Source: a virus
Lineage: Duplodnaviria > Heunggongvirae > Uroviricota > Caudoviricetes
Length of the DNA stretch: 64,000 nt
Virus record (IMG/VR): IMGVR_UViG_3300026484_000284
Coordinates: 1-64,000 of that record
Direction: 5' to 3' (one strand)
The number at the start of each line of letters is the position of its first letter. Position 1 is the first letter of the stretch. The notes below the pieces were generated by a model. The model was not told where the DNA came from, made no database searches, and saw only the letters and a list, made by a program, of their open reading frames with translations. Shown piece after piece: positions 5,018 through 63,365 of the stretch. The position numbers and the translations under genes were made by a program.

Positions 5018-5068
5018 TTGTACTCCTTATTTTTCATAATTATACTAAAAGGAAGGAAAATAATTAAC

Positions 5069-8812: not shown

Positions 8813-9058
8813 TTACTTGACAATATATTTCATTCCTTTTATCAATAAATTAAAAAATTCAATAATACCATAAGCAAATAATAAAACTAACAAAATAGGA
8901 AATAATATCGCGAATGATAAAATCAAAATAATAAAATAAATTATAGTATATATATTAAAATACACAAATTCTACAACTTCTTCAAGTGTTTGAATGCCAC
9001 CAATCATAAATGAATAAGTACCGAGCGAAACAAAAAAATATAAAAGTATATATATCAT
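8813..9058 (-). CDS. small membrane protein (81 aa)
   Basis: Highly hydrophobic. Tiles between its neighbours. Confidence 0.3.
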   Translation of the reverse strand: MIYILLYFFVSLGTYSFMIGGIQTLEEVVEFVYFNIYTIIYFIILILSFAILFPILLVLLFAYGIIEFFNLLIKGMKYIVK

Positions 9059-10594: not shown

Positions 10595-10684
10595 TGGCAG
10601 TGGATGTGGGATTCGAACCCACGGATGCTGTTACACATCAACGGTTTTCAAGACCGCCACCTTCGACCACTCAGACAACCCACT
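10595..10684 (-). tRNA. tRNA-Ser (anticodon UGA), long variable arm, CCA encoded
   Basis: The reverse complement folds as a cloverleaf. Acceptor AGTGGGT/ATCCACT. Anticodon stem GCGGT/ACCGT with loop CTTGAAA. Long extra arm. T-loop GGTTCGAATCC. Confidence 0.7.
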
Positions 10685-10720
10685 TCTTAAATTTATTAAA
10701 ATATAGTTCTTAATTTTTTA

Positions 10721-10796
10721 TGGTATTCCTAACGGGATTTGAACCCGTAATGCTACCTTGAAAGGGTAGTGAGATAACCAATTTCTCCATAGGAAC
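10721..10796 (-). tRNA. tRNA-Glu (anticodon UUC), CCA encoded
   Basis: Acceptor GTTCCTA/TAGGAAT. Anticodon stem CTACC/GGTAG with loop CTTTCAA. T-loop GGTTCAAATCC. Confidence 0.65.
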
Positions 10797-10814
10797 ATTT
10801 TTTAATAACTTTTA

Positions 10815-10890
10815 TGGTAGTCTTAGGAAGAATTGAACTTCCATTTCCCGATTATCAGTCGAGTGTTCTAACCATTTGAACTATAAGACT
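10815..10890 (-). tRNA. tRNA-Ile (anticodon GAU), CCA encoded
   Basis: Acceptor AGTCTTA/TAAGACT. Anticodon loop CTGATAA. T-loop AGTTCAATTCT. Confidence 0.6.
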
Positions 10891-10893
10891 TTA

Positions 10894-10967
10894 TGGATCC
10901 AAGTGAAGGATTCGAACCCTCATAAGTTGTCCCAAAAACAACTGTCCTACCATTAGACGAACTTGGA
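10894..10967 (-). tRNA. tRNA-Gln (anticodon UUG), CCA encoded, U1-A72
   Basis: Acceptor TCCAAGT/ACTTGGA is a perfect 7 bp stem. Anticodon stem GTTGT/ACAAC with loop TTTTGGG. T-loop GGTTCGAATCC. Confidence 0.65.
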
Positions 10968-11268
10968 ACATTAAATGGTCTAAAAAGACCATTTATACAA
11001 ATAAGACCATTTATTTGATTTTAAAGTGAAAATAAACTTCACTATTATTCTTAATGATAATGAAAGGTTCTTTTATTTAACGACTTTGAAATGTATAAAC
11101 TTCCATTATCTTCCATATATAAATATAAGGAACATTTTTAAAAGTCGTGAGATAAACTCAATAAAAAACTTTGAAGGGTAAAAATGTGTTAGTTTAAAAT
11201 TTTTAAATAAGGAACCCTTTTTAAAGTTTTTTATTGAGTTTATTAAAATAAGTTTAATAAGCACTTTG

Positions 11269-11341
11269 CTCTCCCGCTAGGATTCGAACCTAGGACATCC
11301 TGATTAACAGTCAGGTGTTCTACCAACTGAACTACGGGAGA
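11269..11341 (-). tRNA. tRNA-Asn (anticodon GUU); 3' end reads G-CAA, so no CCA is encoded
   Basis: Acceptor TCTCCCG/CGGGAGA. Anticodon stem CCTGA/TCAGG with loop CTGTTAA. T-loop GGTTCGAATCC. Confidence 0.65.
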
Positions 11342-11598: not shown

Positions 11599-12945
11599 TT
11601 AAAAAAATCCAATATCTCCTAAACTTGCTTTTTTCTCTAACTCCCAACCAACAGGTTCCAAAATCGCTTTAATAGGTGCTTCAATGATTTTTTCATATTG
11701 AATATCTTTATCAATATATTTAACTAAATCTGCATCTATTAAAAAGTTTTCATCTTGAAATCCAATAACATTTTGACCTATTGGGTTCGGTATTTTCAAG
11801 TAAATGAATTTAAGTTTAGAACCATTTTCTATTCTTTGATATCTTTCGGTCAATTTTAATTTTTCAATCAATTCATTATGAAGAATTGCTGCTCTACTAT
11901 TCATTGGTGCTGACAATTTTTTGTTATTTTCGTGCTTATAAAAGTTTTCACCTTCTCTTTCATAATCAATACTATTAACACCACTAATTCTAGAACATTC
12001 AGGAACTTTTTTCGGGTCTTCAAGTGCTTCATAATACTCTTTTTTGACACTTTTAAAATAACTTTGAATATCTTTTTCTGTCTTTAATAGTGTCATTTCA
12101 AGTCCTGTTTTCAAATGTTCTTTAGCAAATTCAGGAGTTGAACTTCTTACAACCTCTAATCCTGTTACGGCAATTTTAGGTCTTCCAAAATAAGCACCCT
12201 CATCATAAGTTTTGGCAACAGCATATTTTTTCTTCGCAACGAATAAACCTGAAACCATAACTTTCTCAACTTTTGCCCCCATAAATCCGACTTCGAATAA
12301 ATTGAATGTATCCATAAGAAAATCGACAGTTTCGTTTATTATAGGTTGAATTTTAGTTTCTACGAAAGAAATAATTTTTTTAGTGATTTCAATAACTTCA
12401 TCTTCGGTTAAGTCATTAACATCTTTTTTATATTTCTCAAGCAGTTTTTTACCTATTCTATTTATAGAAACATAACCTGAATTATGACTTAAAATATCAT
12501 TCGCAAAAAAAGTATGATTGTCTTCCACTTCAATATCATAAACATAATTCGTAGTTTTAGGTAATTTAACTATACTAAAATTAGGTGTGAATTTAATGTT
12601 CCCATCTTCTAGAAAAATCAACATATCGTTAAATTTTATTTCGTTTGGAGTTACTTCAATAACTTCATTATCCCTTAAAACCATAATTCCGTGGTCTTCT
12701 GTTATAGTTATTGAGTAATTTTCATCTGTGCTAAATTCAAATTTATAAAGATATTTGTTTGTTTTATGTCTAACTATATTTAAAATCTTTTTTTCTTCAA
12801 TTCCATTATCAAGTTCAAGGAATGATTTAGTATATAAATTTTCATTACTCAAATCTATAATTTCCTTGAAACCCTTATGTGCTTCAATTTTTTTGACTTT
12901 ATCTTTATATTTATTGAATAATTTTTCAATTTGAATTTTTGTCAT
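11599..12945 (-). CDS. family-B DNA polymerase C-terminal fragment (thumb, KKRY motif), preceded by ~158 aa carrying intein blocks B, F and G
   Basis: ITITEDHGIMV (block B, TxxH). VYDIEVEDNHTFFANDILSHN|S (block G, terminal HN, +1 Ser). Then GYVSINRIG...LFVAKKKYAV (KKRY motif). Own SD AAGGAAAAATATG. Confidence 0.8.
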   Translation of the reverse strand: MTKIQIEKLFNKYKDKVKKIEAHKGFKEIIDLSNENLYTKSFLELDNGIEEKKILNIVRHKTNKYLYKFEFSTDENYSITITEDHGIMVLRDNEVIEVTPNEIKFNDMLIFLEDGNIKFTPNFSIVKLPKTTNYVYDIEVEDNHTFFANDILSHNSGYVSINRIGKKLLEKYKKDVNDLTEDEVIEITKKIISFVETKIQPIINETVDFLMDTFNLFEVGFMGAKVEKVMVSGLFVAKKKYAVAKTYDEGAYFGRPKIAVTGLEVVRSSTPEFAKEHLKTGLEMTLLKTEKDIQSYFKSVKKEYYEALEDPKKVPECSRISGVNSIDYEREGENFYKHENNKKLSAPMNSRAAILHNELIEKLKLTERYQRIENGSKLKFIYLKIPNPIGQNVIGFQDENFLIDADLVKYIDKDIQYEKIIEAPIKAILEPVGWELEKKASLGDIGFF

Positions 12946-12959
12946 ATTTTTCCTTTTTT

Positions 12960-13544
12960 TTAAAGAATTTTCATTTTCTTTAGGTCCTCAATATATCCAA
13001 CTACATAAGCAGCAATTTTTTGAATTCTTTTATAAGGTTTTTTGCCAAAAATTTTAGTATGTGAAACAGAAATGTTTTTTGTATTTTCGTTAAATGTTAC
13101 TAAAACCTTTTGATTGTATTTCCAATCCTCTACAAGTATATCAATTTGATTAGGTCTACATAAAACTATACCTTTAACATTCTTTAAATCTTTATTGATA
13201 TTTTCTTCCATAAGTTCTGGATTAAAAAATTTATTGACTTCATTATTAACATTTACATCTTCTTTTTTAAGGTATGTATCGACACTTGAACCCTGTAAAA
13301 TCCCTTGTAAAAAAAGTAAATTTTCTGTTTTATCTGTACCTAATTTTTTACCATAATGCCCGACAGAGTAAATTTTTAATTTACCATTTTTTGAAGGTGT
13401 TATTTTTAACTTTATTTTATCATCTTTATTAACATAAATCACATCTCTTTGATAAAGAAATGGTATTTTTTTAGTATCTAAAAAATTAGCAACTTTTCCC
13501 AATCTTCCTTCAAATTTGAATGAATTTAAAAACCTTTTTTCCAT
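12960..13544 (-). CDS. hypothetical protein (194 aa) inserted inside the split polymerase locus
   Basis: ORF in the same frame as the upstream 78-aa ORF, separated from it by a single TAA. No clear HNH, GIY-YIG or LAGLIDADG motif. Confidence 0.4.
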   Translation of the reverse strand: MEKRFLNSFKFEGRLGKVANFLDTKKIPFLYQRDVIYVNKDDKIKLKITPSKNGKLKIYSVGHYGKKLGTDKTENLLFLQGILQGSSVDTYLKKEDVNVNNEVNKFFNPELMEENINKDLKNVKGIVLCRPNQIDILVEDWKYNQKVLVTFNENTKNISVSHTKIFGKKPYKRIQKIAAYVVGYIEDLKKMKIL

Positions 13545-13781
13545 TTATACTCCTTCATTTATTTTTGTTAATTCTTTTTTTAAATCGTTTTCATCTACGA
13601 AAATAATCTTTTCAATAAGATTACCTGCTTGATAAACTTTTACACCTAAAACATCTTCAAATTCTATAATTTCATCTTCAAGAATAATAGTTACTTTTGC
13701 TTTGTCATTGATAAAATCAACTTCATATGAATTGAATTTGTTATATGCGATGATTCTATCTGATTGAATAATCATTATCAT
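13545..13781 (-). CDS. hypothetical protein (78 aa)
   Basis: Immediately downstream of a consensus promoter at 13803..13838. In frame with the 194-aa ORF across one TAA. Confidence 0.35.
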   Translation of the reverse strand: MIMIIQSDRIIAYNKFNSYEVDFINDKAKVTIILEDEIIEFEDVLGVKVYQAGNLIEKIIFVDENDLKKELTKINEGV

Positions 13782-13802
13782 TTTTGTTCCTTATGTTTTT
13801 AT

Positions 13803-13838
13803 ATTATAATTATAACAAAATAAAATCAAAAAGTCAAG
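13803..13838 (-). promoter_or_regulatory. consensus sigma70-type promoter (TTGACT-N17-TATAAT on minus strand) inside the polymerase split
   Basis: Plus strand reads ATTATAATTATAACAAAATAAAATCAAAAAGTCAAGT. Confidence 0.5.
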
Positions 13839-13874
13839 TAAAATTTAATTTAATTTTGACTTTTTATTAACTTT

Positions 13875-15836
13875 TTAAGCACTTTTTAAATAAATTTCTG
13901 TATTTCCTAAAACACTGTCAGTATCTTGATAAATGATTTTTGACACTTCACTTTTTTCAATATCACTTAAATACTTATCTATATTTTGTCCAGTTAATCT
14001 GTTTAATAATCTACTCATAAAAGTAATACTTGCGGCATTATCTCTATTGAATAATATAAATGCAGCATTTGAAATAGCACCATATAAACTATTTATCTGG
14101 ATTTTTTTTGCCATTTGAATTGCATCTTTAACATTCGCATAAGTTTCTAAAACACTTAAATTCTCAATGTCTTTAATTTTAATATCATAAACATTTTCCC
14201 AAGTGATTTCGTCATTATCGATTTTTTCAATAATTTCATTGACACTTATTAAAGTTGTGCCTTTTTCATTACTTATAATCGCATTAGCAAGTAGCATTCT
14301 ATTCTTTTCTTTCTTTCTATCGTAGTAAATACTTTTAACAATTTCAGGAACAATTCCTTTGATATCTTTTCTATAAAAAGCACAACCAGCAAAACTTAAA
14401 TTATATTTATGGGTTACCATTTTGATGTATCTCATCATTTTTTCATTTTTTAGTAACTTACTCTCATCTTCATCTTTTAAGTAATCTACAATTTTCTTTG
14501 CTTCTTCTGGCAATTCATTATATTGGATATAAGTTGTCGCACATATATTACAGGTATTAATAATTGACGGGAACAGTGAATTATAATCATAACTAAATAA
14601 CCACTCGTGTTTCCCTTTTATAGGATTTTTAACAAAACCACCTACAATGGATTTATCTAATTTACCATTCATACTATCTTCAGGCATAATGAGTTTTCTT
14701 TTCAACCCTAAATGTGTTAAAAATACTGCCCAAGGTTTAACTGTCGCTAATACATCATCCATATTGGCGCCCATTTCCCAGGACATAACCCCAACAATAT
14801 CGAAAAATTTAAGATTATTTTCAAGGTTATTTAAAGTTTCCACATCCATAATTGAATATTCGAAGAACCCATCGTAGTCTTTCTCATAAAATTCATAAAT
14901 ACTCGAAAAATGTTTATAACTAACTTTTCCTTCTCCTTGTTTTAAGTGAATTTTAGTAATGTATTCCAATGTATAAGATGGTAAATCTCCATAAGTAAAT
15001 TTTCTATAAACTTCATAATAATCCAATAAATAATGCCCTGCCATTTTAATTTTGCAGGTATCAACTTTATATAATTTTTCGTCTGTGTTTCTAATAAAGT
15101 CAAGTATCTTATCAAGACTATAATACTTTTTATAAGAACCATCTTTCAACTTGAAATCTATTTTAATTGAATAATCACTTAATGGACTAAATATCTTAGG
15201 ATCTAAACCAACTTGAATTGCTTTAAAAAATATATAAGGATAATCGAAAAGGTGTCCATTATATGCTGTTATAATGGTTGGGTTTAGTTTTTTGATGATT
15301 GTGGCATATCTTTCTAGAATATCTTTATCATCTTTACATTTTATAAATTTTACTTTATTCCATTTTTTCTTCAATTCAAGTGAAGGTTCTTTTGTATAAA
15401 GGATTATCACTTGACCCGTCTCACTATCTTTCATTTGAATATGTGTTATTGGTGCTTTCGCCAAATGAGGTTTTGGGAATTCTCTATTTTTTAAGTCAAT
15501 AGTTTCAATATCAAGATATAAAATTCTAGGTTTTTTATATTCACTTTGCCAAAATTGATGGGCATAAATTATATCCTGTGGCAACTTGATAATAGTTTTC
15601 ATATCTTTATAAGTGTTATAATAATCTTCCATTGCTTTTTTAGTTGGAAATGTTCTTTTTTTCAATTTTGTTTTAAAGTCAATAAAGGTATATTCACCTT
15701 CAGAATCTTGCTCAAATAAAGTCCATTTGAATGTCGCTTTATTGAATTTTCCATCTATTCTTGTATAGTATTCAAAACCACTTTTAAAAATTCCTTCTAA
15801 CATATTTCTCCTTTGTATTTTTATAATTATAATCAA
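13875..15836 (-). CDS. family-B DNA polymerase N-terminal fragment (3'-5' exo + palm, T4 gp43-like), ending in a 13-aa intein block-A-like tail
   Basis: Exo I LYLDIETID, Exo II YNGHLFDYPY, Exo III YSIMDVETL. Motif A DYNSLFPSII, motif B KIQINSLYGA, motif C YQDTDS. Then VLGNTEIYLKSA-stop. Confidence 0.85.
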   Translation of the reverse strand: MIIIIKIQRRNMLEGIFKSGFEYYTRIDGKFNKATFKWTLFEQDSEGEYTFIDFKTKLKKRTFPTKKAMEDYYNTYKDMKTIIKLPQDIIYAHQFWQSEYKKPRILYLDIETIDLKNREFPKPHLAKAPITHIQMKDSETGQVIILYTKEPSLELKKKWNKVKFIKCKDDKDILERYATIIKKLNPTIITAYNGHLFDYPYIFFKAIQVGLDPKIFSPLSDYSIKIDFKLKDGSYKKYYSLDKILDFIRNTDEKLYKVDTCKIKMAGHYLLDYYEVYRKFTYGDLPSYTLEYITKIHLKQGEGKVSYKHFSSIYEFYEKDYDGFFEYSIMDVETLNNLENNLKFFDIVGVMSWEMGANMDDVLATVKPWAVFLTHLGLKRKLIMPEDSMNGKLDKSIVGGFVKNPIKGKHEWLFSYDYNSLFPSIINTCNICATTYIQYNELPEEAKKIVDYLKDEDESKLLKNEKMMRYIKMVTHKYNLSFAGCAFYRKDIKGIVPEIVKSIYYDRKKEKNRMLLANAIISNEKGTTLISVNEIIEKIDNDEITWENVYDIKIKDIENLSVLETYANVKDAIQMAKKIQINSLYGAISNAAFILFNRDNAASITFMSRLLNRLTGQNIDKYLSDIEKSEVSKIIYQDTDSVLGNTEIYLKSA

Positions 15837-35064: not shown

Positions 35065-35583
35065 TTAATTATTACTTGTTTTTTCAAACAACTTAAACAA
35101 TTCACTTTCTAATTCTTTATCATTTTTTATTTTTTCAAAAACATATATAATTTGATTTTCGAGTGATTTGAATATGTGTATATTTTTCAATTTACATAAA
35201 ATTCTTATATAATCGTTCTTTTCAGAATCTTTTGGGAATCCCACAACTAAATTTTCTCTATCGATATTCATACCTAATTCTATATTTGTGGTTAAACCAG
35301 GTAATTTTTTCATTTCGCGGGGTATCCAGAAAAATAGAAAAGTACTAAACTTTTGGCATTTTAATTCCCATTTAACTTGGTTTTCTTTTTCAAATTTAAA
35401 ATTGGAATCTTTAAATTCAGGTAAAATGAGGTTTATAGTAAAGTCATATTCTTTCTCAATTTTTTCAAATAATTCAACTGCTTCCTTTCTCCAACTTTTT
35501 GTATCTTTACTTCTGGGTGAAGGACCCATTAAGAAAACACTATTTTCAAAATTGACTTCATCTTGGGCATAATATATATTCAT
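35065..35583 (-). CDS. nucleoside 2-deoxyribosyltransferase-like Rossmann protein (tentative)
   Basis: N-terminal NSVFLMGPSPRS resembles the NDT YLAGP loop. Weak call. Confidence 0.3.
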   Translation of the reverse strand: MNIYYAQDEVNFENSVFLMGPSPRSKDTKSWRKEAVELFEKIEKEYDFTINLILPEFKDSNFKFEKENQVKWELKCQKFSTFLFFWIPREMKKLPGLTTNIELGMNIDRENLVVGFPKDSEKNDYIRILCKLKNIHIFKSLENQIIYVFEKIKNDKELESELFKLFEKTSNN

Positions 35584-35585
35584 TT

Positions 35586-35852
35586 TTATCCTTTATGACA
35601 CTTAAAAGCAGAAAGGTGAATGTCCCCATCTTTGCTTATAAATTTATATTTTTTATAATAAAACTTGGTATTATCAATATACATAAAAGCCTCACTATCT
35701 TCATCTAAATAACACTTTATTTTATAACCTTTATTAAATTCTTCCACAAGATTGTTTTTGATATAATGCGCTTTACTTGATATTAAAACTGTCAAAGTAG
35801 TGATAAATGCTGCGAAAGAAAGTATTAAAATCTTTAAATCAGAACTTTCCAT
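35586..35852 (-). CDS. small membrane-anchored protein (88 aa)
   Basis: N-terminal TM helix. Confidence 0.3.
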   Translation of the reverse strand: MESSDLKILILSFAAFITTLTVLISSKAHYIKNNLVEEFNKGYKIKCYLDEDSEAFMYIDNTKFYYKKYKFISKDGDIHLSAFKCHKG

Positions 35853-35869
35853 TTTGTTTCCTTTATTGT

Positions 35870-36835
35870 TTAATTTATATTCCTAAATTCATCTGTTAAA
35901 AATTGCCCACACGCTGCCTTAATTTCTGAACCAGCACTAAATTGAACCTTTAAGGGAATATCGTTTTTATAAAATAAATTTAACATATCATTAAAATTTT
36001 TTGATTCATTTAAGGTTGAATTTTCGCAAGTGTTAAGTCTTAAAATTCTCAACTCAATAAAATTTAAAAAAGTATAATCCATTATATGTTTTATCATTTC
36101 GATAGTTAAATTGACATCTTCGTTTGTGTCGTTTATACCATCTATCAACATCGTGTGGAAAATGATATTCGTTTTCAACTCTGACAATAAGTCAATTGCT
36201 TCATCGACAGGTAATGCTTTAGGAATAAGTTTTTTTCTAACTTCATCATTGAAACTATATAAACTATAAAAAAATCTTAAAGGTGTTCTGTGCTTATATT
36301 TTTGTCTATTCGTGTCCTTATCAATATTAACAATAATATCATTTGCTGGGTTTAATGGATAACGATATAGGCACCCATTTAATCTATTGAAAATAGAAAT
36401 ATCAATCTTCTTTGGTACGATTGATGATATATCAACACCATCCAAACCTTTTACAAATAACATAGCATAGTCCAAGAAGTTAAGTGAAACCCATTTCATA
36501 TCGTCAGGGTTCAAAAAGGCATCTTCCCCCATTCCCATCCAGCATAATTTGATATACTTATCCTTGATTTCTGGGGTTTCTTCAAGTTGCTTATCAAGTG
36601 CTTCTTTTAAATTATTTAAAACTTGTTCTTTTGATAATTTTTTATATTTTATGTCTTTTAAAGTCAAGTAACAAAATTTGCACTTGTATTGACACCCATA
36701 AGACATTGAGGCAAATAATGTAAATTTGTTTCTATCTTGATTACTACAACCTGGCAATAATTTTATCGATGTTTCAGATAAATCATCGTGTATATACTTA
36801 TATGTAGATTTATCATTTGAAATAAATAGTTTCAT
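35870..36835 (-). CDS. RlmN/Cfr-family radical SAM methyltransferase-like protein
   Basis: CQYKCKFCY (Cx3Cx2C). CWMGMGEDAFLN (compare RlmN FMGMGEPL). C-terminal KAACGQFL (compare the RlmN conserved AACGQL Cys). Confidence 0.6.
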   Translation of the reverse strand: MKLFISNDKSTYKYIHDDLSETSIKLLPGCSNQDRNKFTLFASMSYGCQYKCKFCYLTLKDIKYKKLSKEQVLNNLKEALDKQLEETPEIKDKYIKLCWMGMGEDAFLNPDDMKWVSLNFLDYAMLFVKGLDGVDISSIVPKKIDISIFNRLNGCLYRYPLNPANDIIVNIDKDTNRQKYKHRTPLRFFYSLYSFNDEVRKKLIPKALPVDEAIDLLSELKTNIIFHTMLIDGINDTNEDVNLTIEMIKHIMDYTFLNFIELRILRLNTCENSTLNESKNFNDMLNLFYKNDIPLKVQFSAGSEIKAACGQFLTDEFRNIN

Positions 36836-36845
36836 TTTGTTTCCT

Positions 36846-38027
36846 TTAAATTCTTCTTTTCGAAAGAAATTCTTCTATATTATCAATGGCAATTTTAACA
36901 CTTTCTTCTGATGTTTTTATTTTTATATATTCGACATCATCAATTATGTTATTTTTACCATCCACCCAAACCTTTATACTATCACGGGAATTCATTCTAA
37001 TTTCTATATATTGTGGTTCTAGTACATAATGAATCTTTCTATTTGTTTTATCACCTGTAACCACGATGTTCTTACTATCGATTGGTAAAATAACACCACC
37101 ATTATTCTTATTGATACCTGTACTTCCTTGAGCAGTTGAAAAAATTAAACCACCTCCACTAAATTCATCAAAAATGTTATTTCTGTCATTTACTTCAAAA
37201 TGAATCCAACTATTCATATCCCCACCTATACAAATATCGTTAAAAGCATAATAAGTTTTATTTCTTATTTCTGCTTCAAGTAAATTAAGATGTAATATAT
37301 GATAATTCCCCGATTCTTCATTTTCGTTCATTAAAAAATTCACTCTTCCACGAGCGACACCATAAAAAACTTTATTTTTGTGCCTAAATTTATTTATTGC
37401 CCTTAAAAGTGTTCCATCTCCACCATAACATTTTATGACCTGTGGGTATTCAACTATTTCAGTATATTTATCTTTAAAAAGTGTTTTACCCCAGAAGTGA
37501 ATACTTTTAAGATATTCATAAACTTTTTCCGATAAATGTTTTTTTGCTGTTATTTCGCATTTTCTTGAATGAGTAGCGTGAATACAAACTCCATCATCGT
37601 GAATCTGGTCTAATTCGAAAAGGTCATAACCTTCATTCTTAAATATAACTTGATAATTTTCATAATAAAAAGTTTCATTTTTAAAAATAAAATCTTGTTT
37701 ATCTTCGGGTTTTAAGTGGGTAAAAAATACAATTTCTTCTTTTGGGTTTTTTGAAAATTGATTAAATACCTTTTCAACATTTGCGAACCACTCATCCCAA
37801 TCATAAAAATCTTCAAGTCCAATTACTTTTAAATCAGGATATACTCTTTTTATCATCTTTTTTCTTTGTTTGAATGATAATGGATTCTTATCATTTATTT
37901 TATTTTTAGAACCCACAATAATTACAGGTTCTAAATTTTGTTTTTTAATAGTTTCAATAATTTTTTGATGGGCAAGTGTTAAAGGTTGAAATCTACCGAT
38001 TAACACCCCATATTTTTTATTCTCCAT
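36846..38027 (-). CDS. NMN/NaMN adenylyltransferase fused to an NAD-kinase-like domain
   Basis: N-terminal GVLIGRFQPLTLAHQ (HxGH-type cytidylyltransferase). C-terminal GGDGTLL, GRVNFL and FSTAQGSTGINKNNGGVILP (NAD kinase motifs). Confidence 0.6.
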   Translation of the reverse strand: MENKKYGVLIGRFQPLTLAHQKIIETIKKQNLEPVIIVGSKNKINDKNPLSFKQRKKMIKRVYPDLKVIGLEDFYDWDEWFANVEKVFNQFSKNPKEEIVFFTHLKPEDKQDFIFKNETFYYENYQVIFKNEGYDLFELDQIHDDGVCIHATHSRKCEITAKKHLSEKVYEYLKSIHFWGKTLFKDKYTEIVEYPQVIKCYGGDGTLLRAINKFRHKNKVFYGVARGRVNFLMNENEESGNYHILHLNLLEAEIRNKTYYAFNDICIGGDMNSWIHFEVNDRNNIFDEFSGGGLIFSTAQGSTGINKNNGGVILPIDSKNIVVTGDKTNRKIHYVLEPQYIEIRMNSRDSIKVWVDGKNNIIDDVEYIKIKTSEESVKIAIDNIEEFLSKRRI

Positions 38028-38042
38028 GTGCCATCCTTTATT

Positions 38043-38780
38043 TTATACTAATTTTTCCCATTGACAATTTCCTGAAATTGTCCCATTACTAAACAAATAT
38101 CTAACATTTAACTTTGGATTTGTTTCATTATAATCCCAATACCATATGTTAGGATAATCTTTTAATTTTATTGCCCCGTTTTCCATTTTAATGGCATTTT
38201 TTGATTTGTCAATGTTTTCGTTTCCTATATTTTGAAAAGCATTATAAAAAGTTGATTGCCATCTTTTTTCTTTTGATGAATTCACTTCTGGTCTAATTGT
38301 CATTTTAAATTCAAAAATATCTTTAAAATTTTTAAACCATTCATCCAAAATATGAAAATTTTTATCAGTTATAACAAGTGATAATCTAATATCAAAATTT
38401 TCATCTTTATGATTTTTTAATACATTAAACATTTCTTTATTAAAATTTTCATCTATACTAAAAACAAAAGAATCATAACCAGCATTTTTTGCTGTTTTGA
38501 TAACATTTAAGTTTCTTGTGTGTAATGACACTTTTAAATGCTTATTAAAACTTTTAGCAATTGAAGGAATTTTTGATGACTCTTTTACAAATGAAGGGTC
38601 AGATGTATCCCCACTTATTGATAATAAATCAGTCATATCTGCAAAACATCCAATAAATGATTCCCATTTAGTTGAAAAATGGGGTTTTATGTCTTTTCTG
38701 ATATTTTTGCCTACACAAAAATCACAATTAAATTTACATTTACCACCTGCTAAAATACTTATATAATCAAATTTTTTCAA
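38043..38780 (-). CDS. radical SAM protein (245 aa), function unknown
   Basis: CKFNCDFCVG (Cx3Cx2C) at residues 15-22. Compact activase-like size. Confidence 0.5.
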   Translation of the reverse strand: MKKFDYISILAGGKCKFNCDFCVGKNIRKDIKPHFSTKWESFIGCFADMTDLLSISGDTSDPSFVKESSKIPSIAKSFNKHLKVSLHTRNLNVIKTAKNAGYDSFVFSIDENFNKEMFNVLKNHKDENFDIRLSLVITDKNFHILDEWFKNFKDIFEFKMTIRPEVNSSKEKRWQSTFYNAFQNIGNENIDKSKNAIKMENGAIKLKDYPNIWYWDYNETNPKLNVRYLFSNGTISGNCQWEKLV

Positions 38781-38805
38781 TTTAATTCCTTGTTATTTTA
38801 TTACA

Positions 38806-38840
38806 ATATAATTATAACTAAAAAGAAAATAAAAGTCAAG
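38806..38840 (-). promoter_or_regulatory. consensus sigma70-type promoter
   Basis: Plus strand reads ATATAATTATAACTAAAAAGAAAATAAAAGTCAAG. Confidence 0.45.
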
Positions 38841-38857
38841 GAAATATCCCGACTTTT

Positions 38858-40273
38858 TTAAAATTTATCTATATTTTCTCTAATTTTGTCAAGTGTTATC
38901 TCATTTTTAACTTTCCCATTTTCGAAAACAACTTTTAGCATTTCAATATCATTAGGTTGTTTCTCACTTTCTTTAATACAGATAATTTCGTCATCTCTTT
39001 TAATAGTGATAACTTTACCTTTTTTAGATTGTTTTTTGCTATCTGTGATTGGGTTTTTAAACACTTCGACACCAACTTTTTTACCATCTACCATTCTTTC
39101 AATATAAGAACATTTCATTGCAAAACTGAATGTATCTCTATCTATTCCTGTTTGCCCTAATTGTGTTCCACTACCAAAAACAAAATTTTCAGCAGCATAT
39201 CCTTTTTCTATGAATGTTTTAAGAATATTTTCGATTGTAGTTGGATTTATTCCATCGCTCCAAAGGATTCCTGCCCAACTGCTTGCTTTCTTTCCATTTA
39301 TTTCAATATCAAAAACATTATTTTTTTCCATAATTTCAAGTATTTTAGAAATCACTTCGATTGGATTACCACTATCTGGACGAATGACAATTTTTTGTTT
39401 TCTCTCTTGAATTTTACTTCTTATATAAGAATTTTCACTTGTAACTTTTTCCACGAAATTAAAAACATCGTAACTATCTGCCACAAATGATAGAATCGCA
39501 CCTTCTTTGTCATTTTCTTTGACCATTCTTTCTACAAATTTTATTTCTTTTTCGGTTGAACCCTCAGCATTTGCCGTAGTTGAACTATGTTCTGTCGCGA
39601 AAACACTAAAAGCACTTATTTCAGCACCATAGTAATCTCTTGCGAATTTAAGTGAATTAAAATTATCCGTTCCCATAAAAATACAATTATGAGCAAAACC
39701 ACTTATTGCTGCTGATTCTACACTTGTCATACTTCTATCCCCAAAATTGTGGTATGCAAATCTTGCCCATTCTTCACTTCCGTATTTTTTAAGCATTTCA
39801 AAAACTTGTTTGCTTTTAGTCGTGATAACAGTTGGATACCATATTTTCATAAGCATTGTTTCTACCCAACCAACGACCCAAGGAACATTTTCGTCAGTGC
39901 TTTCTACCACTACAAGTGGCACTCCAGGTTTAACTTTTACACCCTCTTCAACTGCTTTTATTCTGATGGGTATTTTACCATTTAGTTGCTTAGCAATATA
40001 CATCCATCCGTCATAATTGAAATCTATTCCGTGAAATTTTGCGAATTCTGCTGCTTCTTCAACCGATTCAGTTGTAATTTTTTGACTAAGGTATCTTTTT
40101 ATATAGTATTGAAGACCACTTATAGTGATTTCTTCAGGTCCTTTTCTTGCTTCGATATAATCATACATATAACTCATATCTTTTGGGTATTGTTTATGGT
40201 GCCCATACTTATAACTATCTGCCATCATTATGATATTTTCATTTTTCATTTTATTTCTCCTTAAATTTAACAA
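38858..40273 (-). CDS. nadV: nicotinamide phosphoribosyltransferase (NadV/NAMPT)
   Basis: N-terminal MMADSYKYGHHKQYP matches the NAMPT TDSYK..H motif. About 470 aa, the typical size. Confidence 0.7.
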   Translation of the reverse strand: MLNLRRNKMKNENIIMMADSYKYGHHKQYPKDMSYMYDYIEARKGPEEITISGLQYYIKRYLSQKITTESVEEAAEFAKFHGIDFNYDGWMYIAKQLNGKIPIRIKAVEEGVKVKPGVPLVVVESTDENVPWVVGWVETMLMKIWYPTVITTKSKQVFEMLKKYGSEEWARFAYHNFGDRSMTSVESAAISGFAHNCIFMGTDNFNSLKFARDYYGAEISAFSVFATEHSSTTANAEGSTEKEIKFVERMVKENDKEGAILSFVADSYDVFNFVEKVTSENSYIRSKIQERKQKIVIRPDSGNPIEVISKILEIMEKNNVFDIEINGKKASSWAGILWSDGINPTTIENILKTFIEKGYAAENFVFGSGTQLGQTGIDRDTFSFAMKCSYIERMVDGKKVGVEVFKNPITDSKKQSKKGKVITIKRDDEIICIKESEKQPNDIEMLKVVFENGKVKNEITLDKIRENIDKF

Positions 40274-43836: not shown

Positions 43837-44580
43837 TTATTTTCCTTCAAATTCTTTTATTTCATTTCTAAGAATTTTTCTTTTATTTTTGTCCGTTTCA
43901 TTTTTGAGTTGTTTTCTTAACTCAATTAAAATGAATGGGTCTTTTGATTTATTTAATTTTATTTTATAATTTTTTTTGAAATTATTTCCAATATAATTAT
44001 ACCTAAATAAAATATCTTCCTTTCTTAATGACTTAAAACCTTTTGTTTTATCTCCGTCTGCTTTTTGTGGTAACTTTCTTTTATTTCCAAATGTCGGTTG
44101 CCATAACTCACTTTTTTCGAGATAATATCCTAACTTGTTATGAAAAGTTGATATAAACATTTTTATATTTTTTTGTTTATAAAATTCAGAAATACTATCA
44201 ATGATAATTCTACCAAATCCCATTCCTTGGAATTCAGGTAAAACGACTAATCTACTCAATCTACGAGCATTGTGGTATTTATGAATTTGAAATAAAACAG
44301 CGACACAACCGACTAAAACTTCTTCAATTTTACCATTATCTTCTTTTAACCAATAATAAGTATAAAATTTACTTGATGATGGGAGTGTTTTTTCAACAGG
44401 CTGATTAAAAGTCATATAATGGAAAGAATGAAATGTTTTCCATAAATGTTTTTCTCCTTCCTTAATAATAACTTTTAATCTAGGCCTTTTGAATAGTTTA
44501 TATTTCATTTTTGATATAATTCCATTTTGTATAAATGAAAATTGATTTCCAATCACTATTTTCAAAAAGTTGATTTTCAT
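43837..44580 (-). CDS. GNAT-family N-acetyltransferase
   Basis: Acetyl-CoA motif LVVLPEFQGMGFGRIIID. The true start is probably the internal Met (MKYKL, ~44508), which would avoid the overlap with the Nudix gene. Confidence 0.55.
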   Translation of the reverse strand: MKINFLKIVIGNQFSFIQNGIISKMKYKLFKRPRLKVIIKEGEKHLWKTFHSFHYMTFNQPVEKTLPSSSKFYTYYWLKEDNGKIEEVLVGCVAVLFQIHKYHNARRLSRLVVLPEFQGMGFGRIIIDSISEFYKQKNIKMFISTFHNKLGYYLEKSELWQPTFGNKRKLPQKADGDKTKGFKSLRKEDILFRYNYIGNNFKKNYKIKLNKSKDPFILIELRKQLKNETDKNKRKILRNEIKEFEGK

Positions 44581-45037
44581 TTAACCAAACAATTTTTTCA
44601 TCCTCGTCTGCCCCTACAAATTTCGCATTTGTTACATCAACGACATAACCTTTAAGCATTTGATTTGATTGGGTTGAAACCATTGTCTCACCTATATAAG
44701 TAATATCTTTCTCATCAACACTATATCCTGCTTCTTCTTTAACTTCTTCAATAACGATTTCTTCTGGGTTGATATTTTTATCTAAACTACCACCAAAAGC
44801 AGTTGCTAATCTTTTTATGCCCCTTTCATATAAAGGAGGTTTGATTTCTTGGATAAGACCAATTTTGTCCTTATCAATTAAAATGAAAGCAACACTATCC
44901 ACTCCCGCTCTTTCTGAAAATAAATAATATCCATCCGCTCTTTTAATCGTCATAAAAGGTTCGCCATTAAGTGGATTTTTACCTTCACTTTCCCATAGAA
45001 CTTCTGGTATCTCTTTTTGCATAAATTCTTTATTCAT
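44498..45037 (-). CDS. Nudix hydrolase
   Basis: Nudix box GGSLDKNINPEEIVIEEVKEEAGY (Gx5Ex7-[RK]ExxEExG). Confidence 0.55.
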   Translation of the reverse strand: MNKEFMQKEIPEVLWESEGKNPLNGEPFMTIKRADGYYLFSERAGVDSVAFILIDKDKIGLIQEIKPPLYERGIKRLATAFGGSLDKNINPEEIVIEEVKEEAGYSVDEKDITYIGETMVSTQSNQMLKGYVVDVTNAKFVGADEDEKIVWLNENQLFENSDWKSIFIYTKWNYIKNEI

Positions 45038-46153: not shown

Positions 46154-46996
46154 TTATAATTGAATTAACTTTTCCATTTCTGTTCTTACTCTTTCGGCAT
46201 TTCCATTTTTCATCATAAAATCGAAATTTCTTCTTACTGCCTCAAGTGTTCCTTTAATGGGTATAAATCCTTTTTTGATGAATTTATAAACTCGCATAAT
46301 TCTTAAACTATCTTCAAAAATTCTGTCTTCGGGTCTACCAATAAATGAAAATTTATTTTCCAAGCAATGTTTAATCCCTTTTTGAGATGGGTCAAGTAAT
46401 TCAAATGTTTTTAAATTAAAGTATAGGGTATTTATAGTGAAATCTCTTCTTTGCCAATCGTCTTCAAGTGTTCCGAATTCAACTTCATCTGCACCCAAAC
46501 CCTTTTTCCCGTGGTAAATATCTTTTCTAAAAGTTGCTATTTCAAATGTTTCTTTTGCTTTAACCATAACCACACCAAAATGCTCACCGATTAAATCCGT
46601 TTCAACTTCGTCTTTTAAAATTTCTACAACTTGATTTGGAGTCAAGTCAGTAACTAAATCGATGTCTTTAATTGGTAATTCTGCTAAAACATCACGATTA
46701 AACCCACCTACAATAAACACATTTCCATTTTCTAGAAGTTTTTTAACCCATTTATTTTCTTCAATAAAATCTTGTGCTAAAAGTGTCATCAAGTTTAATC
46801 TCACTAAAAACAATTTTATATTGAAACTTATATTAAAACTTATATTAAAATTATTATGAGACTCAACTAATTTTAGTGGGTCTTTATCAAGTGTTTTTAA
46901 AAATTCATGCGAAAATAATTTTTCATTGTCGTTTGTAAATGGTACTCCATTTCTAAATTTTTCTTGTCTTAATTCATTCAAAAAAAAGTTTTTCAT
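46154..46996 (-). CDS. class II nucleotidyltransferase, CCA-adding/poly(A)-polymerase head domain (tRNA 3'-end repair candidate)
   Basis: VFIVGGFNRDVLAELPIKDIDLVTD matches GGxVRDxLLGxxxxDxDxxT. 280 aa, lacking the HD tail. Contains a 3x12-bp in-frame repeat (NFNISFNISFNI). Confidence 0.55.
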   Translation of the reverse strand: MKNFFLNELRQEKFRNGVPFTNDNEKLFSHEFLKTLDKDPLKLVESHNNFNISFNISFNIKLFLVRLNLMTLLAQDFIEENKWVKKLLENGNVFIVGGFNRDVLAELPIKDIDLVTDLTPNQVVEILKDEVETDLIGEHFGVVMVKAKETFEIATFRKDIYHGKKGLGADEVEFGTLEDDWQRRDFTINTLYFNLKTFELLDPSQKGIKHCLENKFSFIGRPEDRIFEDSLRIMRVYKFIKKGFIPIKGTLEAVRRNFDFMMKNGNAERVRTEMEKLIQL

Positions 46997-54798: not shown

Positions 54799-55803
54799 TT
54801 AAGAATTACAAAATTCTTTTTTAAGTAATTCCATAAACATTTTTTCTAATTCATTCAAGTTGGCAGTTTTAGGTAAATCTTTTACTACATCTTGAAGTTT
54901 TTCGAAATTTGCAAACTCAACTTCCATTCTCTCTTCAAGTTCTTCAAGTGTAAATTCTAAATTTCTAACTCTTTTAAGTTCTTCGGCATTTTCAAGTGGG
55001 AAGTTTAATTTTTTATTTACGATTAAATCCCTTCCTTCTTCTAAAAGTCTAAATAAGTGCATAAAAAATTTGGCATCATATCCAACTTCTTTCCATTGTG
55101 CTGCTCTATGACTTGATGAAGCAATTTTTTCTTTCATCATTTTATTTGCTTTTTTGATGAATAAGTTTCTTGGAAACGATAAGTTGCTCACAACTACACC
55201 ATCTTTTTTGAATAAGTGTTTGAAAGGAGCAAACTCATTGTAATGCTGAACTTCACCTAATGTCATATTATTATCGTGAGTTTGTAAAAACTCTTCTAAT
55301 GTTTTTTGTAATGTAATTAAATCTTTGTAATTAACTGCTTTGTTTTTACCTTTTTTTAATTGACTTTTCGCATACCCCATAAACGAATGAAACACTCTTT
55401 GATTGATAAATAACTCACTATTATTTTGAAACATTTCAAACTCAGGTGTATTATAAACAACTGCTTCTGGGTTTGTGTGTGCGAAAAGTAATTCCACGAT
55501 GTTTGGGTTGTTCTCAGCGGCAAGTTTTAAGAATTTTTTCAATTCATACACTTTACAATCCAATGCTTCTTTTGTATTTTTACCACTCGCATCTTTTACT
55601 ACTTCTGATAAATCAACCTCATCAATGTTTTTAAATCCTAAATGATATTCTGGTCTTGCTAAAAATACACCTAAATAATCTGTATCTGATTCTGGTGTGT
55701 TAGTACCATATAATTGACTTCCACTTTTTGTTAAAAATAATAGTCTTCCGTAAGGACTTAATTTTTCATTAACCATTTCTAAAATTTCATTTCTTGTTTT
55801 CAT
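54799..55803 (-). CDS. nucleotidyltransferase-fold protein (334 aa)
   Basis: FLTKSGSQLYGTNTPESDTDYLGVF (GS-x-DxD) plus a long helical C-terminus. Stop/start directly abuts 54100..54798. Confidence 0.45.
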   Translation of the reverse strand: MKTRNEILEMVNEKLSPYGRLLFLTKSGSQLYGTNTPESDTDYLGVFLARPEYHLGFKNIDEVDLSEVVKDASGKNTKEALDCKVYELKKFLKLAAENNPNIVELLFAHTNPEAVVYNTPEFEMFQNNSELFINQRVFHSFMGYAKSQLKKGKNKAVNYKDLITLQKTLEEFLQTHDNNMTLGEVQHYNEFAPFKHLFKKDGVVVSNLSFPRNLFIKKANKMMKEKIASSSHRAAQWKEVGYDAKFFMHLFRLLEEGRDLIVNKKLNFPLENAEELKRVRNLEFTLEELEERMEVEFANFEKLQDVVKDLPKTANLNELEKMFMELLKKEFCNS

Positions 55804-61862: not shown

Positions 61863-62114
61863 TTATTTCCTTTCTAATTTTTTGTTTATATCATTTAAAA
61901 GTTGATTTTGTTTTTTCAAAACTTCTGTTCTTATTTTTTCAACTTGAATATCTGATTTAATTTTTAATTTTTTAGTTTCATAGTTGAGGTAAGCACTAAA
62001 AAATAAGTAAGTGAATAACATTGCTATAAAAGCATAACCAGTATAACATTCCATAATTTTTCCTTTATAAATTTTATCTATATTTCCAGAATTTTTGTAG
62101 AATCGAAGTAACAA
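61863..62114 (-). CDS. small membrane-anchored protein (83 aa)
   Basis: One TM helix plus a coiled tail. Confidence 0.3.
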   Translation of the reverse strand: MLLRFYKNSGNIDKIYKGKIMECYTGYAFIAMLFTYLFFSAYLNYETKKLKIKSDIQVEKIRTEVLKKQNQLLNDINKKLERK

Positions 62115-62484
62115 TTTTACTTTGATTGTTTGATATTCTAGGTAAGTTACTCACATTAAACCATTTTAATCCATAAATTTCTCTATTTGGGAAGAATGAA
62201 TAGTCAATATCTTTACCATTGAAACTAACAAAAAACAATCCAATATCTTTTTTCTTATTCTTCTGTAAAATAAAGTCCTCTAATTCATTTTTATTTAACT
62301 TGATATTTACTTCTTCTTCAACTTCACGAACGACACATTCTTTAATCGTTTCGTTCTCTTCAATTTTACCTTTAATAAAATCATAAGACTTCGCTTGTTT
62401 ATGTGTCTTCGTTAAAAGTATTTTCACTTCATTTTTCTTAAAATCTATTTTATAAGGTATAATACCATAACTTTTTTCTTTCAA
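62074..62484 (-). CDS. Nudix hydrolase (136 aa)
   Basis: GKIEENETIKECVVREVEEEVNI matches the Nudix box (GxxxxxE-x7-REVxEExG). Confidence 0.5.
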   Translation of the reverse strand: MKEKSYGIIPYKIDFKKNEVKILLTKTHKQAKSYDFIKGKIEENETIKECVVREVEEEVNIKLNKNELEDFILQKNKKKDIGLFFVSFNGKDIDYSFFPNREIYGLKWFNVSNLPRISNNQSKIVTSILQKFWKYR

Positions 62485-63365
62485 CTATATTCTTTTTCGT
62501 TAGTATATTTATCAAATAGTTCAGGTTTAAAATCTTCAAGTAATTCATTCCAACTCGTAATTCTACTTCTTTTAACTAAACCATTTTCTGTTTCTTTTTC
62601 TGTTTCTTTTTCTGTTTCTTTTTCTGTTTCTTTTTCTGTTTCTTTTTCTGTTTCTTTTTCTGTTTCTTTTTTTATTTCTTTCATATAAAGTTCTTTCTTA
62701 CAAAATGTACCATACTTGAACCACTTTGGACTTTCCCCAAAACTTTTATTGTATTTTTCGTAAGTCAATGTTACTTGCTCATTGGCAGTTTTCCCTTGCA
62801 ACTCTTTATGACTACAATATGCCTGGGCAAAACCTGTTTTCGCATTTCTAAATACATCGTGATTTCTCCATTTGAAATTCTCAAACACTTCTTCAAGTGT
62901 TTCGACACCAAACACTCTAGCATCAAAAAATGCTTGCCCTTCTTTGTTTAATCTCGTTTTAATACAACCGAAGTCATCACAATTACTTTGACAATCAAGT
63001 CTTTCTTCTTTCCAAAAATTGTCAAATTCAAGTGTGGCATATGACGATAAAAGACTTGCCATTTTTTGAACTCTACCACCGAATGGATGAGTTTGTTTTT
63101 CATTACATTTTGGAAAATAAAGAGTGATTTCATCCGAACCTGTAAAACCCAAATTGGCATTGAATTTTTTAACAAGACTTATCATAGTTTTTTTCATAAC
63201 TCTTGCTAAAAACAAATCATAAGGTTTAGTAAGTCCTTTCGTGAATTTACTAAACTTATGTCCATCAAGTCTAACCATAAGGTGCAAGTCATTTGGTACA
63301 TTTACTTCATATTGTTTTTCTACTTGTTTGAATTCATTGTTTTTATCTAGAATATTCTTATTCAT
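62481..63365 (-). CDS. Thg1-like 3'-5' nucleotidyltransferase (tRNA-His guanylyltransferase family) with C-terminal (ETEK)7 repeat tail
   Basis: VRLDGHKFSKFT (compare Thg1 RxDGxxFxxFT). GFTGSDEITLYF (compare YGQSDEYSF, catalytic acidic residues). 84-bp tandem 12-mer at the 3' end. Confidence 0.6.
   Translation of the reverse strand: MNKNILDKNNEFKQVEKQYEVNVPNDLHLMVRLDGHKFSKFTKGLTKPYDLFLARVMKKTMISLVKKFNANLGFTGSDEITLYFPKCNEKQTHPFGGRVQKMASLLSSYATLEFDNFWKEERLDCQSNCDDFGCIKTRLNKEGQAFFDARVFGVETLEEVFENFKWRNHDVFRNAKTGFAQAYCSHKELQGKTANEQVTLTYEKYNKSFGESPKWFKYGTFCKKELYMKEIKKETEKETEKETEKETEKETEKETEKETENGLVKRSRITSWNELLEDFKPELFDKYTNEKEYS
62586..62669. repeat. tandem 12-bp repeat (TTCTGTTTCTTT)x7 encoding (ETEK)7 inside the Thg1-like gene
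   Basis: Direct reading of 62581..62680. Confidence 0.8.

Follow-up and report, generated by a model that had tools for sequence, protein, structure and literature searches.

What is the purpose of the six-gene island at 35065-40273 in a 64,000-nucleotide stretch of Caudoviricetes DNA (IMG/VR record IMGVR_UViG_3300026484_000284; this whole stretch is called the window below, and its coordinates are all given in window numbering)? Depletion of nicotinamide adenine dinucleotide (NAD+) is among the commonest outcomes of bacterial anti-phage immunity. To our knowledge, the rebuilding pathways described in phages, NARP1 to NARP3, all end at NAD+, and we know of no radical S-adenosylmethionine (SAM) enzyme in NAD salvage. 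The island encodes NadV, a nicotinamide mononucleotide adenylyltransferase (NMNAT) fused to an NAD-kinase-like (NADK-like) domain, and two radical-SAM enzymes, here termed rSAM1 and rSAM2. The reading that we favour, with a probability of about 0.62, is that the island is an NAD+ reconstitution module of the NARP2 type extended by one step, with rSAM2 belonging to the NAD gene network and rSAM1 being a bystander. It draws on gene presence, folds, motifs, neighbourhoods and fusions, from which we infer enzyme activities, an anti-defence role and co-transcription.

The sequence-only reading of this DNA had listed six open reading frames (ORFs) in the island and a Nudix and a GNAT gene about 4 kb away. 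All six ORFs are present on the minus strand with every domain call upheld, and the two outlying genes were confirmed by profile matches:

38858-40273, minus strand: NadV, Nampt type, 471 amino acids (PF18127, PF04095, NF006629, phrog_448).
38811-38857, minus strand: hairpin with a T-run, overlapped by a TTGACT-17-TATAAT site (a consensus match only).
38043-38780, minus strand: small radical-SAM enzyme rSAM2, 245 amino acids (CX3CX2C, MoaA/viperin-like core, no auxiliary cluster motif).
37503-38027, minus strand: NMNAT domain of the NadM type, residues ~1-175 of the 393-amino-acid fusion (PF01467, phrog_3462, 2qjt).
36846-37502, minus strand: NAD-kinase-like domain, residues ~176-393 of the fusion (GGDGT, NCBIfam, NADK1 in PDB).
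35870-36835, minus strand: rSAM1, radical-SAM enzyme of RlmN/Cfr fold, 321 amino acids (CX3CX2C cluster).
35586-35852, minus strand: 88-amino-acid protein with one N-terminal hydrophobic segment (residues ~7-26, read off the sequence).
35065-35583, minus strand: nucleoside 2-deoxyribosyltransferase-like (NDT-like) protein of DrHyd fold, 172 amino acids (PF15891, E 2.3e-10, above the cut-off).
44498-45037, minus strand: Nudix hydrolase, ADP-ribose pyrophosphatase type (PF00293, 2e-4; TIGR00052 YffH/AdpP, 1.3e-6, below the cut-off).
43837-44580: GNAT, domain call confirmed.

Can the island rebuild NAD+? NadV scores above the cut-off of a curated equivalog model (NF006629, PRK09198; 444 bits against 405) and matches PF18127 NAMPT_N (2.7e-24), PF04095 (2e-28) and phrog_448 (E 5e-124). 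Its true start is probably eight codons downstream of the ORF start, near 40249, because the public gene call has 463 amino acids against 471 for the ORF. The NMNAT domain scores 33.6 bits with PF01467 (cut-off 21), falls into the NMNAT family phrog_3462, matches the PDB NadM structure 2qjt (1.5e-5) and keeps the motifs GRFQP...H and IHATxxR. NARP2, known from NadV/NatV of vibriophage KVP40, consists of Nampt and Nmnat, with no kinase mentioned, and in experiments overcomes the Thoeris, DSR and SIR2-HerA defences (Osterman et al., bioRxiv 10.1101/2024.02.11.579819). In the island, a Nampt-clade NadV stands one gene away from an NMNAT domain. The proposal that NadV and NMNAT rebuild NAD+ from nicotinamide is thereby matched, at sequence level, to a published pathway. 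Within the 64-kb window, part of a contig of ~102 kb, no PRPS-like gene (Adps, the NARP1 partner) came up, the one Pribosyltran-domain ORF being of 146 amino acids (600-1040).

A side observation concerns NadV in one of the metagenomic loci that were compared with the window and are labelled L001 and so on: in L014 (3-2224) the gene is seemingly split by a 382-amino-acid ORF, probably an insertion of the homing-endonuclease or intein type, one of whose domains recurs in ORFs of several further phage loci.

Does the pathway stop at NAD+? The adenylyltransferase had been described as fused to an NADK-like rather than a Nudix domain, and domain matches identify both halves of the 393-amino-acid protein. 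The C-terminal half matches an NCBIfam NAD kinase model (3e-19) and, in PDB, NADK1 of L. monocytogenes (5e-6), and it contains GGDG. In an alignment of 32 phage proteins the family invariants are GGDGT, NFLMN, AFND, GGGxIxSTxQGSTGINKNN and TGDKT, of which GGDGT and AFND are also invariant across nine fusions; as these motifs do not vary, they argue for an active NADK-like enzyme.

The kinase is, moreover, a recurrent partner of the two NAD+-forming enzymes. Full-length NMNAT-NADK fusions number nine in a collection of 5.8 billion proteins, and stand-alone homologues of the kinase half more than 100 (220-250 amino acids, ~50% identity, many on contigs of 80-430 kb). NadV and/or NMNAT lies within 10 kb of an NADK family gene in 10-11 of 13 IMG/VR viral loci from many samples, usually in the order Nudix, NadV, NMNAT, NADK. 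Such neighbour counts rest on flanks of up to 10 kb, compared by BLAST and a few hidden Markov models rather than by full annotation, and many of the loci are not independent, having been drawn from a single group of related metagenomes (Ga02568xx samples). In L081, L084 and L088 the stand-alone NADK gene starts where the NMNAT gene ends; given this adjacency, the fusion in the window is best read as a join of neighbouring genes from a widespread NadV-NMNAT-NADK module. The distant fusion carriers L001, L004 and L009 have neither NadV nor radical-SAM genes nearby, and in GenBank phages none of 17 matches spans both halves. In the isolated jumbo phage Phosso of Sinorhizobium, a more distant gene annotated as NAD kinase lies 5 kb from PnuC and NMNAT genes. 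Our literature search found no study of a phage NAD kinase, of a phage-encoded NAD kinase with NADP or of the NadV-NMNAT-NADK module, and neither NAD kinase nor radical SAM receives a mention in a systematic survey of viral NAD/ADP-ribose systems. Given this recurrent partner, the suggestion that the island does more than simple salvage, for example producing NADP, is the best reading of the locus.

A gene for a calcineurin-like phosphoesterase was also observed beside or near the fusion in L001 (6073-6846) and L004 (9221-9847), loci whose flanks hold neither NadV nor radical-SAM genes.

Do the radical-SAM enzymes share this pathway, as had been supposed for both? The rSAM2 family is rare: close homologues number 21, and 1.84 billion proteins yielded 86 representatives at E<=1e-3; an IMG/VR scan with the single sequence returned no close relative, whereas alignment-based scans did find relatives. 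At family level rSAM2 has no Pfam, NCBIfam or PDB sequence match. Its structural neighbours are radical-SAM enzymes acting on nucleotides, closest MoaA, viperin and BlsE, a likeness of fold only. The invariant motifs are SGDTSDP, HTR and a C-terminal W-x-Y...N-C-x-W, and only two conserved cysteines are found beyond the CX3CX2C cluster. Identification as an orthologue of NrdG, QueE, LipS or viperin was rejected, the similarity being merely generic and sub-threshold.

The gene context of rSAM2 is more telling. When the ORFs within 5 kb were all clustered without bias at 21 loci, its most frequent neighbour was NMNAT/NADK (10/21), followed by DUF488 (6/21), NadV (4/21) and the NDT-like protein (3/21). 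The arrangements differ as follows:

Window: NadV, rSAM2, NMNAT-NADK.
L037: NadV, rSAM2, NMNAT, NADK, NDT-like.
L034: Nudix, NadV, NMNAT, NADK, NDT-like, DUF488, rSAM2.
L043, from another habitat: rSAM2, then NMNAT directly.
L012: rSAM2 overlapping the end of a PncA-like gene, then NadE and a PncB-like gene, with PnuC-like and NMNAT-like genes upstream.
L095 (5791-11201): ribonucleotide reductase with an ATP cone, an rSAM2-like gene overlapping it, NMNAT, NrtR (Nudix and winged helix), the corrinoid adenosyltransferase CobA, Nudix.

The string in L095 is an apparent operon, and its contig, although binned as Methanosarcinales, encodes Lgt and is on that account bacterial. A SIR2-DUF488-rSAM2 string occurs in six loci (L019, 7425-10732; L029, 3443-6173; L030; L031; L033; L041), and a phage sirtuin adjoins NADK in L086 (11154-11921); our literature search returned DUF488 as uncharacterised. 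In a phiKZ-like phage (L099, 6001-7211; also L100 and L101) a divergent rSAM2 member overlaps a Tad2-like gene (PF11195) by 4 nucleotides; the Tad2 family comprises sponges that take up Thoeris signalling molecules. Other rSAM2 loci have no NAD synthesis genes nearby and show Thg1/Nudix/Rnl1, YqeY, an ATP-dependent DNA ligase or SRP54/Pus10 (archaeal-type). A further observation on this family stands apart. In Omnitrophota and Kazan metagenome-assembled genomes (L097, 36-12482, and L096) an rSAM2-like domain occupies residues ~2666-2890 of a single ORF of more than 4,148 amino acids, which also bears PRK/uridine-kinase, PfkB-kinase and GH77 domains. In the literature, a cyanophage paper that combined radical-SAM and NMNAT proved irrelevant.

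A sister family brings a domain fusion. In a profile search, an NMNAT of the NadM type (GRFQPxHxGH) was found fused to a small radical-SAM domain in L068, L069 and L074. The sister enzyme (~210 amino acids) is related to rSAM2 with an hhalign probability of 98.3% (E 1e-14) and shares with it the motifs ISI..GC..NC..C, SxSGxxDP and HTR. It adjoins a 323-amino-acid RlmN-like enzyme in 8/8 loci, often with overlapping frames:

L068, 7028-9056
L069, 8001-9983
L072, 2311-3902
L073, 10001-11577
L074, 23-1920
L075, 10001-11598
L076, 8113-10789
L080, 9989-11824

As the flanks have no other gene in common across the eight loci, the pair moves as a cassette. In L068 it follows NadV and a separate NMNAT-Nudix gene, which makes the fused NMNAT a second copy; in L069 it precedes a PncB-like gene; in the five loci other than L068, L069 and L074 the surrounding 10 kb are free of NAD genes. 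The RlmN-like partner ends in LCCGQ, lacks an equivalent of Cys118 and is related to rSAM1 only remotely (hhalign probability 89%). No better argument is at hand than this cassette for cooperation between an RlmN-like enzyme, a small radical-SAM enzyme and NMNAT, yet it is no proof that the window's own pair cooperates. Taken with the fusion, its gene context places rSAM2 in the NAD/ADP-ribose gene network, and its likeliest substrate would be a nucleotide of the NMNAT reaction, namely NAD(P)+, nicotinic acid adenine dinucleotide (NaAD) or nicotinamide mononucleotide (NMN), or else an ADP-ribose derivative.

The picture for rSAM1 is different. More than 230 proteins make up its family, at 38-48% identity, and many of them are encoded on contigs of 100-540 kb. 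It has the RlmN/Cfr fold with the CX3CX2C motif starting at residue 48, and C309 in 'AACGQF', invariant in 36 sequences, aligns to 'AACGQL' of RlmN, where Cys355 is the methyl carrier in E. coli. At the place of E. coli Cys118, seven residues before the cluster, stands a nearly invariant Phe41, and there is no other invariant cysteine outside the cluster. The N-terminal RNA-binding domain is absent, with the N-terminal half unmatched and a TIGR00048 score of 51 bits against a cut-off of 290. Lacking both the second cysteine and the RNA-binding domain, rSAM1 should not be filed as RlmN or Cfr; it probably acts on adenine in RNA. Twenty further viral rSAM1 loci hold no NadV, NMNAT, NADK or small radical-SAM gene within 10 kb, nor is any neighbour conserved among them; the gene lies beside NAD genes only in the window and in its 86%-identical relative. 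For these reasons rSAM1 is probably a stand-alone phage gene, and its place in the island does not speak for a shared pathway. GenBank phages commonly carry RlmN-like genes, and our literature search found nothing on them. The supposition that two radical-SAM genes serve the pathway is therefore supported in part, by rSAM2, which is linked to NAD/ADP-ribose genes by many arrangements and by the fusion in its sister family, and not by rSAM1 with its 20 loci devoid of NAD genes; as a general rule, the neighbour analyses rejected one conserved pathway of both with NadV and NMNAT.

Gene packing supports the reading of an extended NARP2-type module accompanied by rSAM2, with gaps of 2-17 nucleotides between the genes from rSAM2 through the NDT-like gene. 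Several observations weigh against it. The 77-nucleotide gap between NadV and rSAM2 holds the hairpin with its T-run and a near-consensus promoter-like site; this is possibly a transcription boundary or restart, and the hairpin may split the transcripts of NadV and of the downstream genes. (Promoter-like sites in the island region were not enriched over shuffles, and there was one notable hairpin only; an Rfam scan returned five tRNAs only, and no riboswitch in the island, whether for NAD+ or another ligand.) The first NMNAT motif is TLAH in the window, not HxGH, against HKGH in other family members; it resembles the T-x-x-H form of eukaryotic NMNATs. In about half of the rSAM2 loci, NAD synthesis genes are missing from the surrounding 5-10 kb, and rSAM2 in turn is absent from all 13 NADK loci. 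Most loci, moreover, stem from a single set of related metagenomes, so that shared ancestry inflates neighbour counts. The NADK-like domain stays under curated cut-offs (PF20143, 21.2 against 23.7; best NCBIfam NADK model, 69 against 211), and in alignment with NADK1 it shows D150->G, S158->Q, Y163->I and S166->N, with T161 kept. As positions 150, 158, 163 and 166 of NADK1 are NAD contacts, the phosphoryl acceptor could be another adenine dinucleotide.

These low scores and family-specific substitutions, together with a neighbourhood rich in ADP-ribose-related genes (Nudix, sirtuin, Tad2-like), would suit a kinase that phosphorylates a different adenine nucleotide, such as NaAD, ADP-ribose or an immune-signal ADP-ribose isomer, so as to recycle or inactivate it. 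We consider this very unlikely: the best matches are by far NAD kinases, the catalytic GGDG and N-D/E motif are kept, and a place after, or fusion to, an NAD-forming enzyme fits channelling of NAD+ as the substrate.

The neighbour data also raise the question of whether both radical-SAM genes are passengers in a hyperplastic early region, rSAM1 methylating tRNA or rRNA and rSAM2 modifying RNA or serving nucleotide reduction, with their proximity to NAD genes reflecting the shared synteny of T4-like phages. Consistent with this are the stand-alone rSAM1 genes of diverse phages and the frequency of RlmN-like genes in GenBank phages, the presence of Thg1, Rnl1, YqeY and Pus10 among the neighbours of rSAM2, its overlap with ribonucleotide reductase in L095, the origin of most rSAM2 loci in one metagenome family, and small relatives that stand alone in Listeria phages without NAD genes. 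Against it, rSAM2 is linked to NAD genes of three enzymologies (NadV/NMNAT; PncA/NadE/PncB; NMNAT/NrtR), in phage and bacterial contigs, in differing gene orders and, in the sister family, by domain fusion. Such diverse contexts make synteny by descent unlikely as the full cause, and we hold the passenger explanation to be rather unlikely.

The cassette, in turn, lends some substance to the idea that the block makes a modified pyridine dinucleotide. NMNAT, rSAM2 and rSAM1 would here work one after another on NAD(P)+ or on precursors of it, with radical dehydration and adenine C-methylation as examples, giving a product that resists immune NADases, inhibits them or serves as a phage-specific cofactor. 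As is well established, RlmN and Cfr add methyl groups to adenine at C2 or C8, and the phage RlmN-like proteins are without the RNA-binding N-terminal domain. The distantly homologous cassette pair is adjacent in all eight loci, with the small enzyme fused to an NMNAT of the NadM type in three and a NAPRTase-family gene adjacent in two, and the NADK-like domain departs from canonical NADK at NAD-contact positions. The families of the window itself do not travel together, however: the 20 rSAM1 loci lack small radical-SAM and NAD genes, ~19 rSAM2 loci lack an RlmN-like gene, 5/8 cassette loci are free of NAD genes over 10 kb, and window and cassette proteins are only remotely homologous. The modified NAD or ADP-ribose derivative proposed in the sequence-only reading is no more than a possibility, and this sequential scheme appears distinctly unlikely. 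A looser proposal, which we offer as an unlikely speculation, is that rSAM2, perhaps with an RlmN-like partner, would perform novel radical chemistry (dehydration, epimerisation or a carbon-carbon reaction) on a pyridine dinucleotide (NAD(P)+, NaAD) or on an ADP-ribose-derived molecule or TIR-Thoeris signal, yielding an NADase-resistant or inhibitory NAD analogue or destroying an immune signal.

The remaining genes were considered as accessories. By its sequence, the window Nudix is the unfused counterpart of the NadM Nudix domain, with homologues upstream of NadV in L034, L081, L085, L088 and L090; by analogy with that domain, it probably splits ADP-ribose to AMP and ribose 5-phosphate. The NDT-like protein, of an N-glycosidase or transferase fold and without a PDB sequence match, is a recurrent accessory of the NadV-NMNAT-NADK module, its homologues adjoining NADK or NadV in L006, L034, L037 and L084. 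The 88-amino-acid protein matched no family in profile scans and is conserved only in the 86%-related phage (62% identity), which marks it as lineage-specific. GNAT does not recur with the module, and its inclusion in the pathway is not supported. As called, the GNAT ORF overlaps the Nudix ORF by 83 nucleotides, and its real start is probably an internal ATG.

On the favoured reading of an extended reconstitution module, the pathway would run in three steps. NadV would convert nicotinamide and phosphoribosyl pyrophosphate to NMN; the N-terminal NadM-type domain of the 393-amino-acid protein would form NAD+ from NMN and ATP; and the fused NADK-like domain would turn NAD+ and ATP into NADP+. The Nudix and NDT-like accessories would probably recycle ribose-phosphate moieties, and rSAM2 would act within the same NAD/ADP-ribose network, rSAM1 being a neighbour by position only that more likely modifies RNA adenine. 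The predicted net effect is that the NAD and NADP pools are kept full against host NADases (TIR, SIR2 and SEFIR effectors), and refilled against the drain by the phage's own NAD-consuming and NADPH-consuming reactions.

Might the second of these functions be the primary one? The module could be metabolic support, providing NAD+ for the removal of 2'-phosphates by sirtuin or KptA-like enzymes in tRNA repair and NADPH for ribonucleotide reduction and thymidylate synthesis, with defence evasion as a by-product. The window does encode a kit for tRNA maintenance and repair (Rnl2, five tRNAs, CCA-adding enzyme, RlaP and Thg1). Phage sirtuins occur in the same neighbourhoods, both in the SIR2-DUF488-rSAM2 strings and beside NADK in L086, the fusion in L001 and in L004 has a calcineurin-like phosphoesterase gene beside it, and ribonucleotide reductase genes are nearby in L004, L095 and L102. 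A survey has proposed NAD-dependent RNA repair for phage sirtuins with such partners (PMC9503650). Set against these points, neither a sirtuin nor KptA was detected in the 64-kb window, and NARP2 overcomes NAD-depleting defence experimentally (10.1101/2024.02.11.579819). We regard metabolic support as the principal role as doubtful, if worth serious attention; counter-defence and metabolic supply are in any case compatible.

If the NadV-NMNAT-NADK module works as proposed, phages also defend the NADP(H) pool, the source for ribonucleotide reduction and thymidylate synthesis, and NADK would become a fourth enzyme for counter-defence assays and for engineered therapeutic phages. The context of rSAM2 (NMNAT, PncA/NadE, NrtR, sirtuin, Tad2-like, and the fusion in its sister family) suggests that the NAD/ADP-ribose network includes a radical reaction yet to be characterised; were its substrate an NAD-family molecule, NAD metabolism would gain its first radical-SAM step, and counter-defence a new class of chemistry. 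The cassette of RlmN-like and small radical-SAM enzymes is a separate, unexplored phage system.

The rest of the window fits a large phage. It has 25% G+C, nearly all its genes are on the minus strand, and its sequence also forms part of a 101,859-bp contig in public metagenomic data; no DNA-level relative was found among GenBank phages. Family scans revealed the hallmarks of T4-like large phages in replication, tRNA/RNA, methyltransferase and deazaguanine genes, including a family B DNA polymerase split by an intein, gp32, UvsW, an RNase H-like exonuclease, three DNA methyltransferases and a dCMP deaminase. The polymerase appears split or interrupted at 11599-15836, an intein splicing-domain ORF (11599-12945) lying downstream of the exonuclease/polymerase ORF (13875-15836). 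The tRNA kit is found at 62074-63365, 46154-46996, 54799-55803, 9058-10038 and 10595-11341; within it a 136-amino-acid Nudix gene is adjacent to Thg1, while the 86%-related phage has a 138-amino-acid Nudix gene directly before NMNAT-NADK instead. A 7-deazaguanine gene set at 2161-6094 (FolE, 2161-2961; QueC-like, 4079-5017; radical-SAM, 5069-6094; a PTPS/QueD-like ORF nearby) suggests deazaguanine modification of DNA or tRNA, its radical-SAM gene, the third in the window, having 341 amino acids and being longer than a typical QueE. Alongside these three SAM-requiring enzymes the window encodes a gene of the S-adenosylmethionine lyase family (PF23780, 3e-12), and also a GGDEF-domain protein (1e-10).

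How does the island compare with known systems? Like NARP2, it sets a Nampt-type NadV and a NadM-type NMNAT side by side in a large phage, with a Nudix of the ADP-ribose type present. It departs from NARP2 in that the Nudix is a separate gene 4 kb off, the adenylyltransferase is fused to the NADK-like domain and a small radical-SAM gene lies between NadV and NMNAT. NARP3, made up of PnuC and NadR, is an alternative phage route to NAD+ (PMC13464706). Preiss-Handler salvage, with its genes in L012, is another, and there the rSAM2 family is embedded in a cluster of PnuC-like, PncA, NadE and PncB genes; the window has neither PnuC/NadR nor PncA/PncB/NadE.

Among the single enzymes, the kinase domain resembles NadK/PpnK (PF01513 and PF20143; NADK1, PDB 2i1w) in its GGDG, N-D/E motif, glycine-rich STxxGST and two-domain order, and differs in being ~40-50 residues shorter, scoring below cut-offs, carrying four substitutions invariant in the family and standing alone after NMNAT or fused to it. 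Unlike RlmN/Cfr, rSAM1 has no RNA-binding domain, Phe in place of Cys118 and a conserved 35-residue beta N-terminus (K-x2-H-x-D-x-SET-x-IK). Unlike MoaA and viperin, rSAM2 has no family-level match and lacks the C-terminal auxiliary cluster of MoaA, and the C-terminal extension motif of viperin was not detected in it. The system that the island most resembles is therefore NARP2, probably extended to NADP+ as its sequence suggests, and joined by a radical-SAM enzyme, rSAM2, of no described family.

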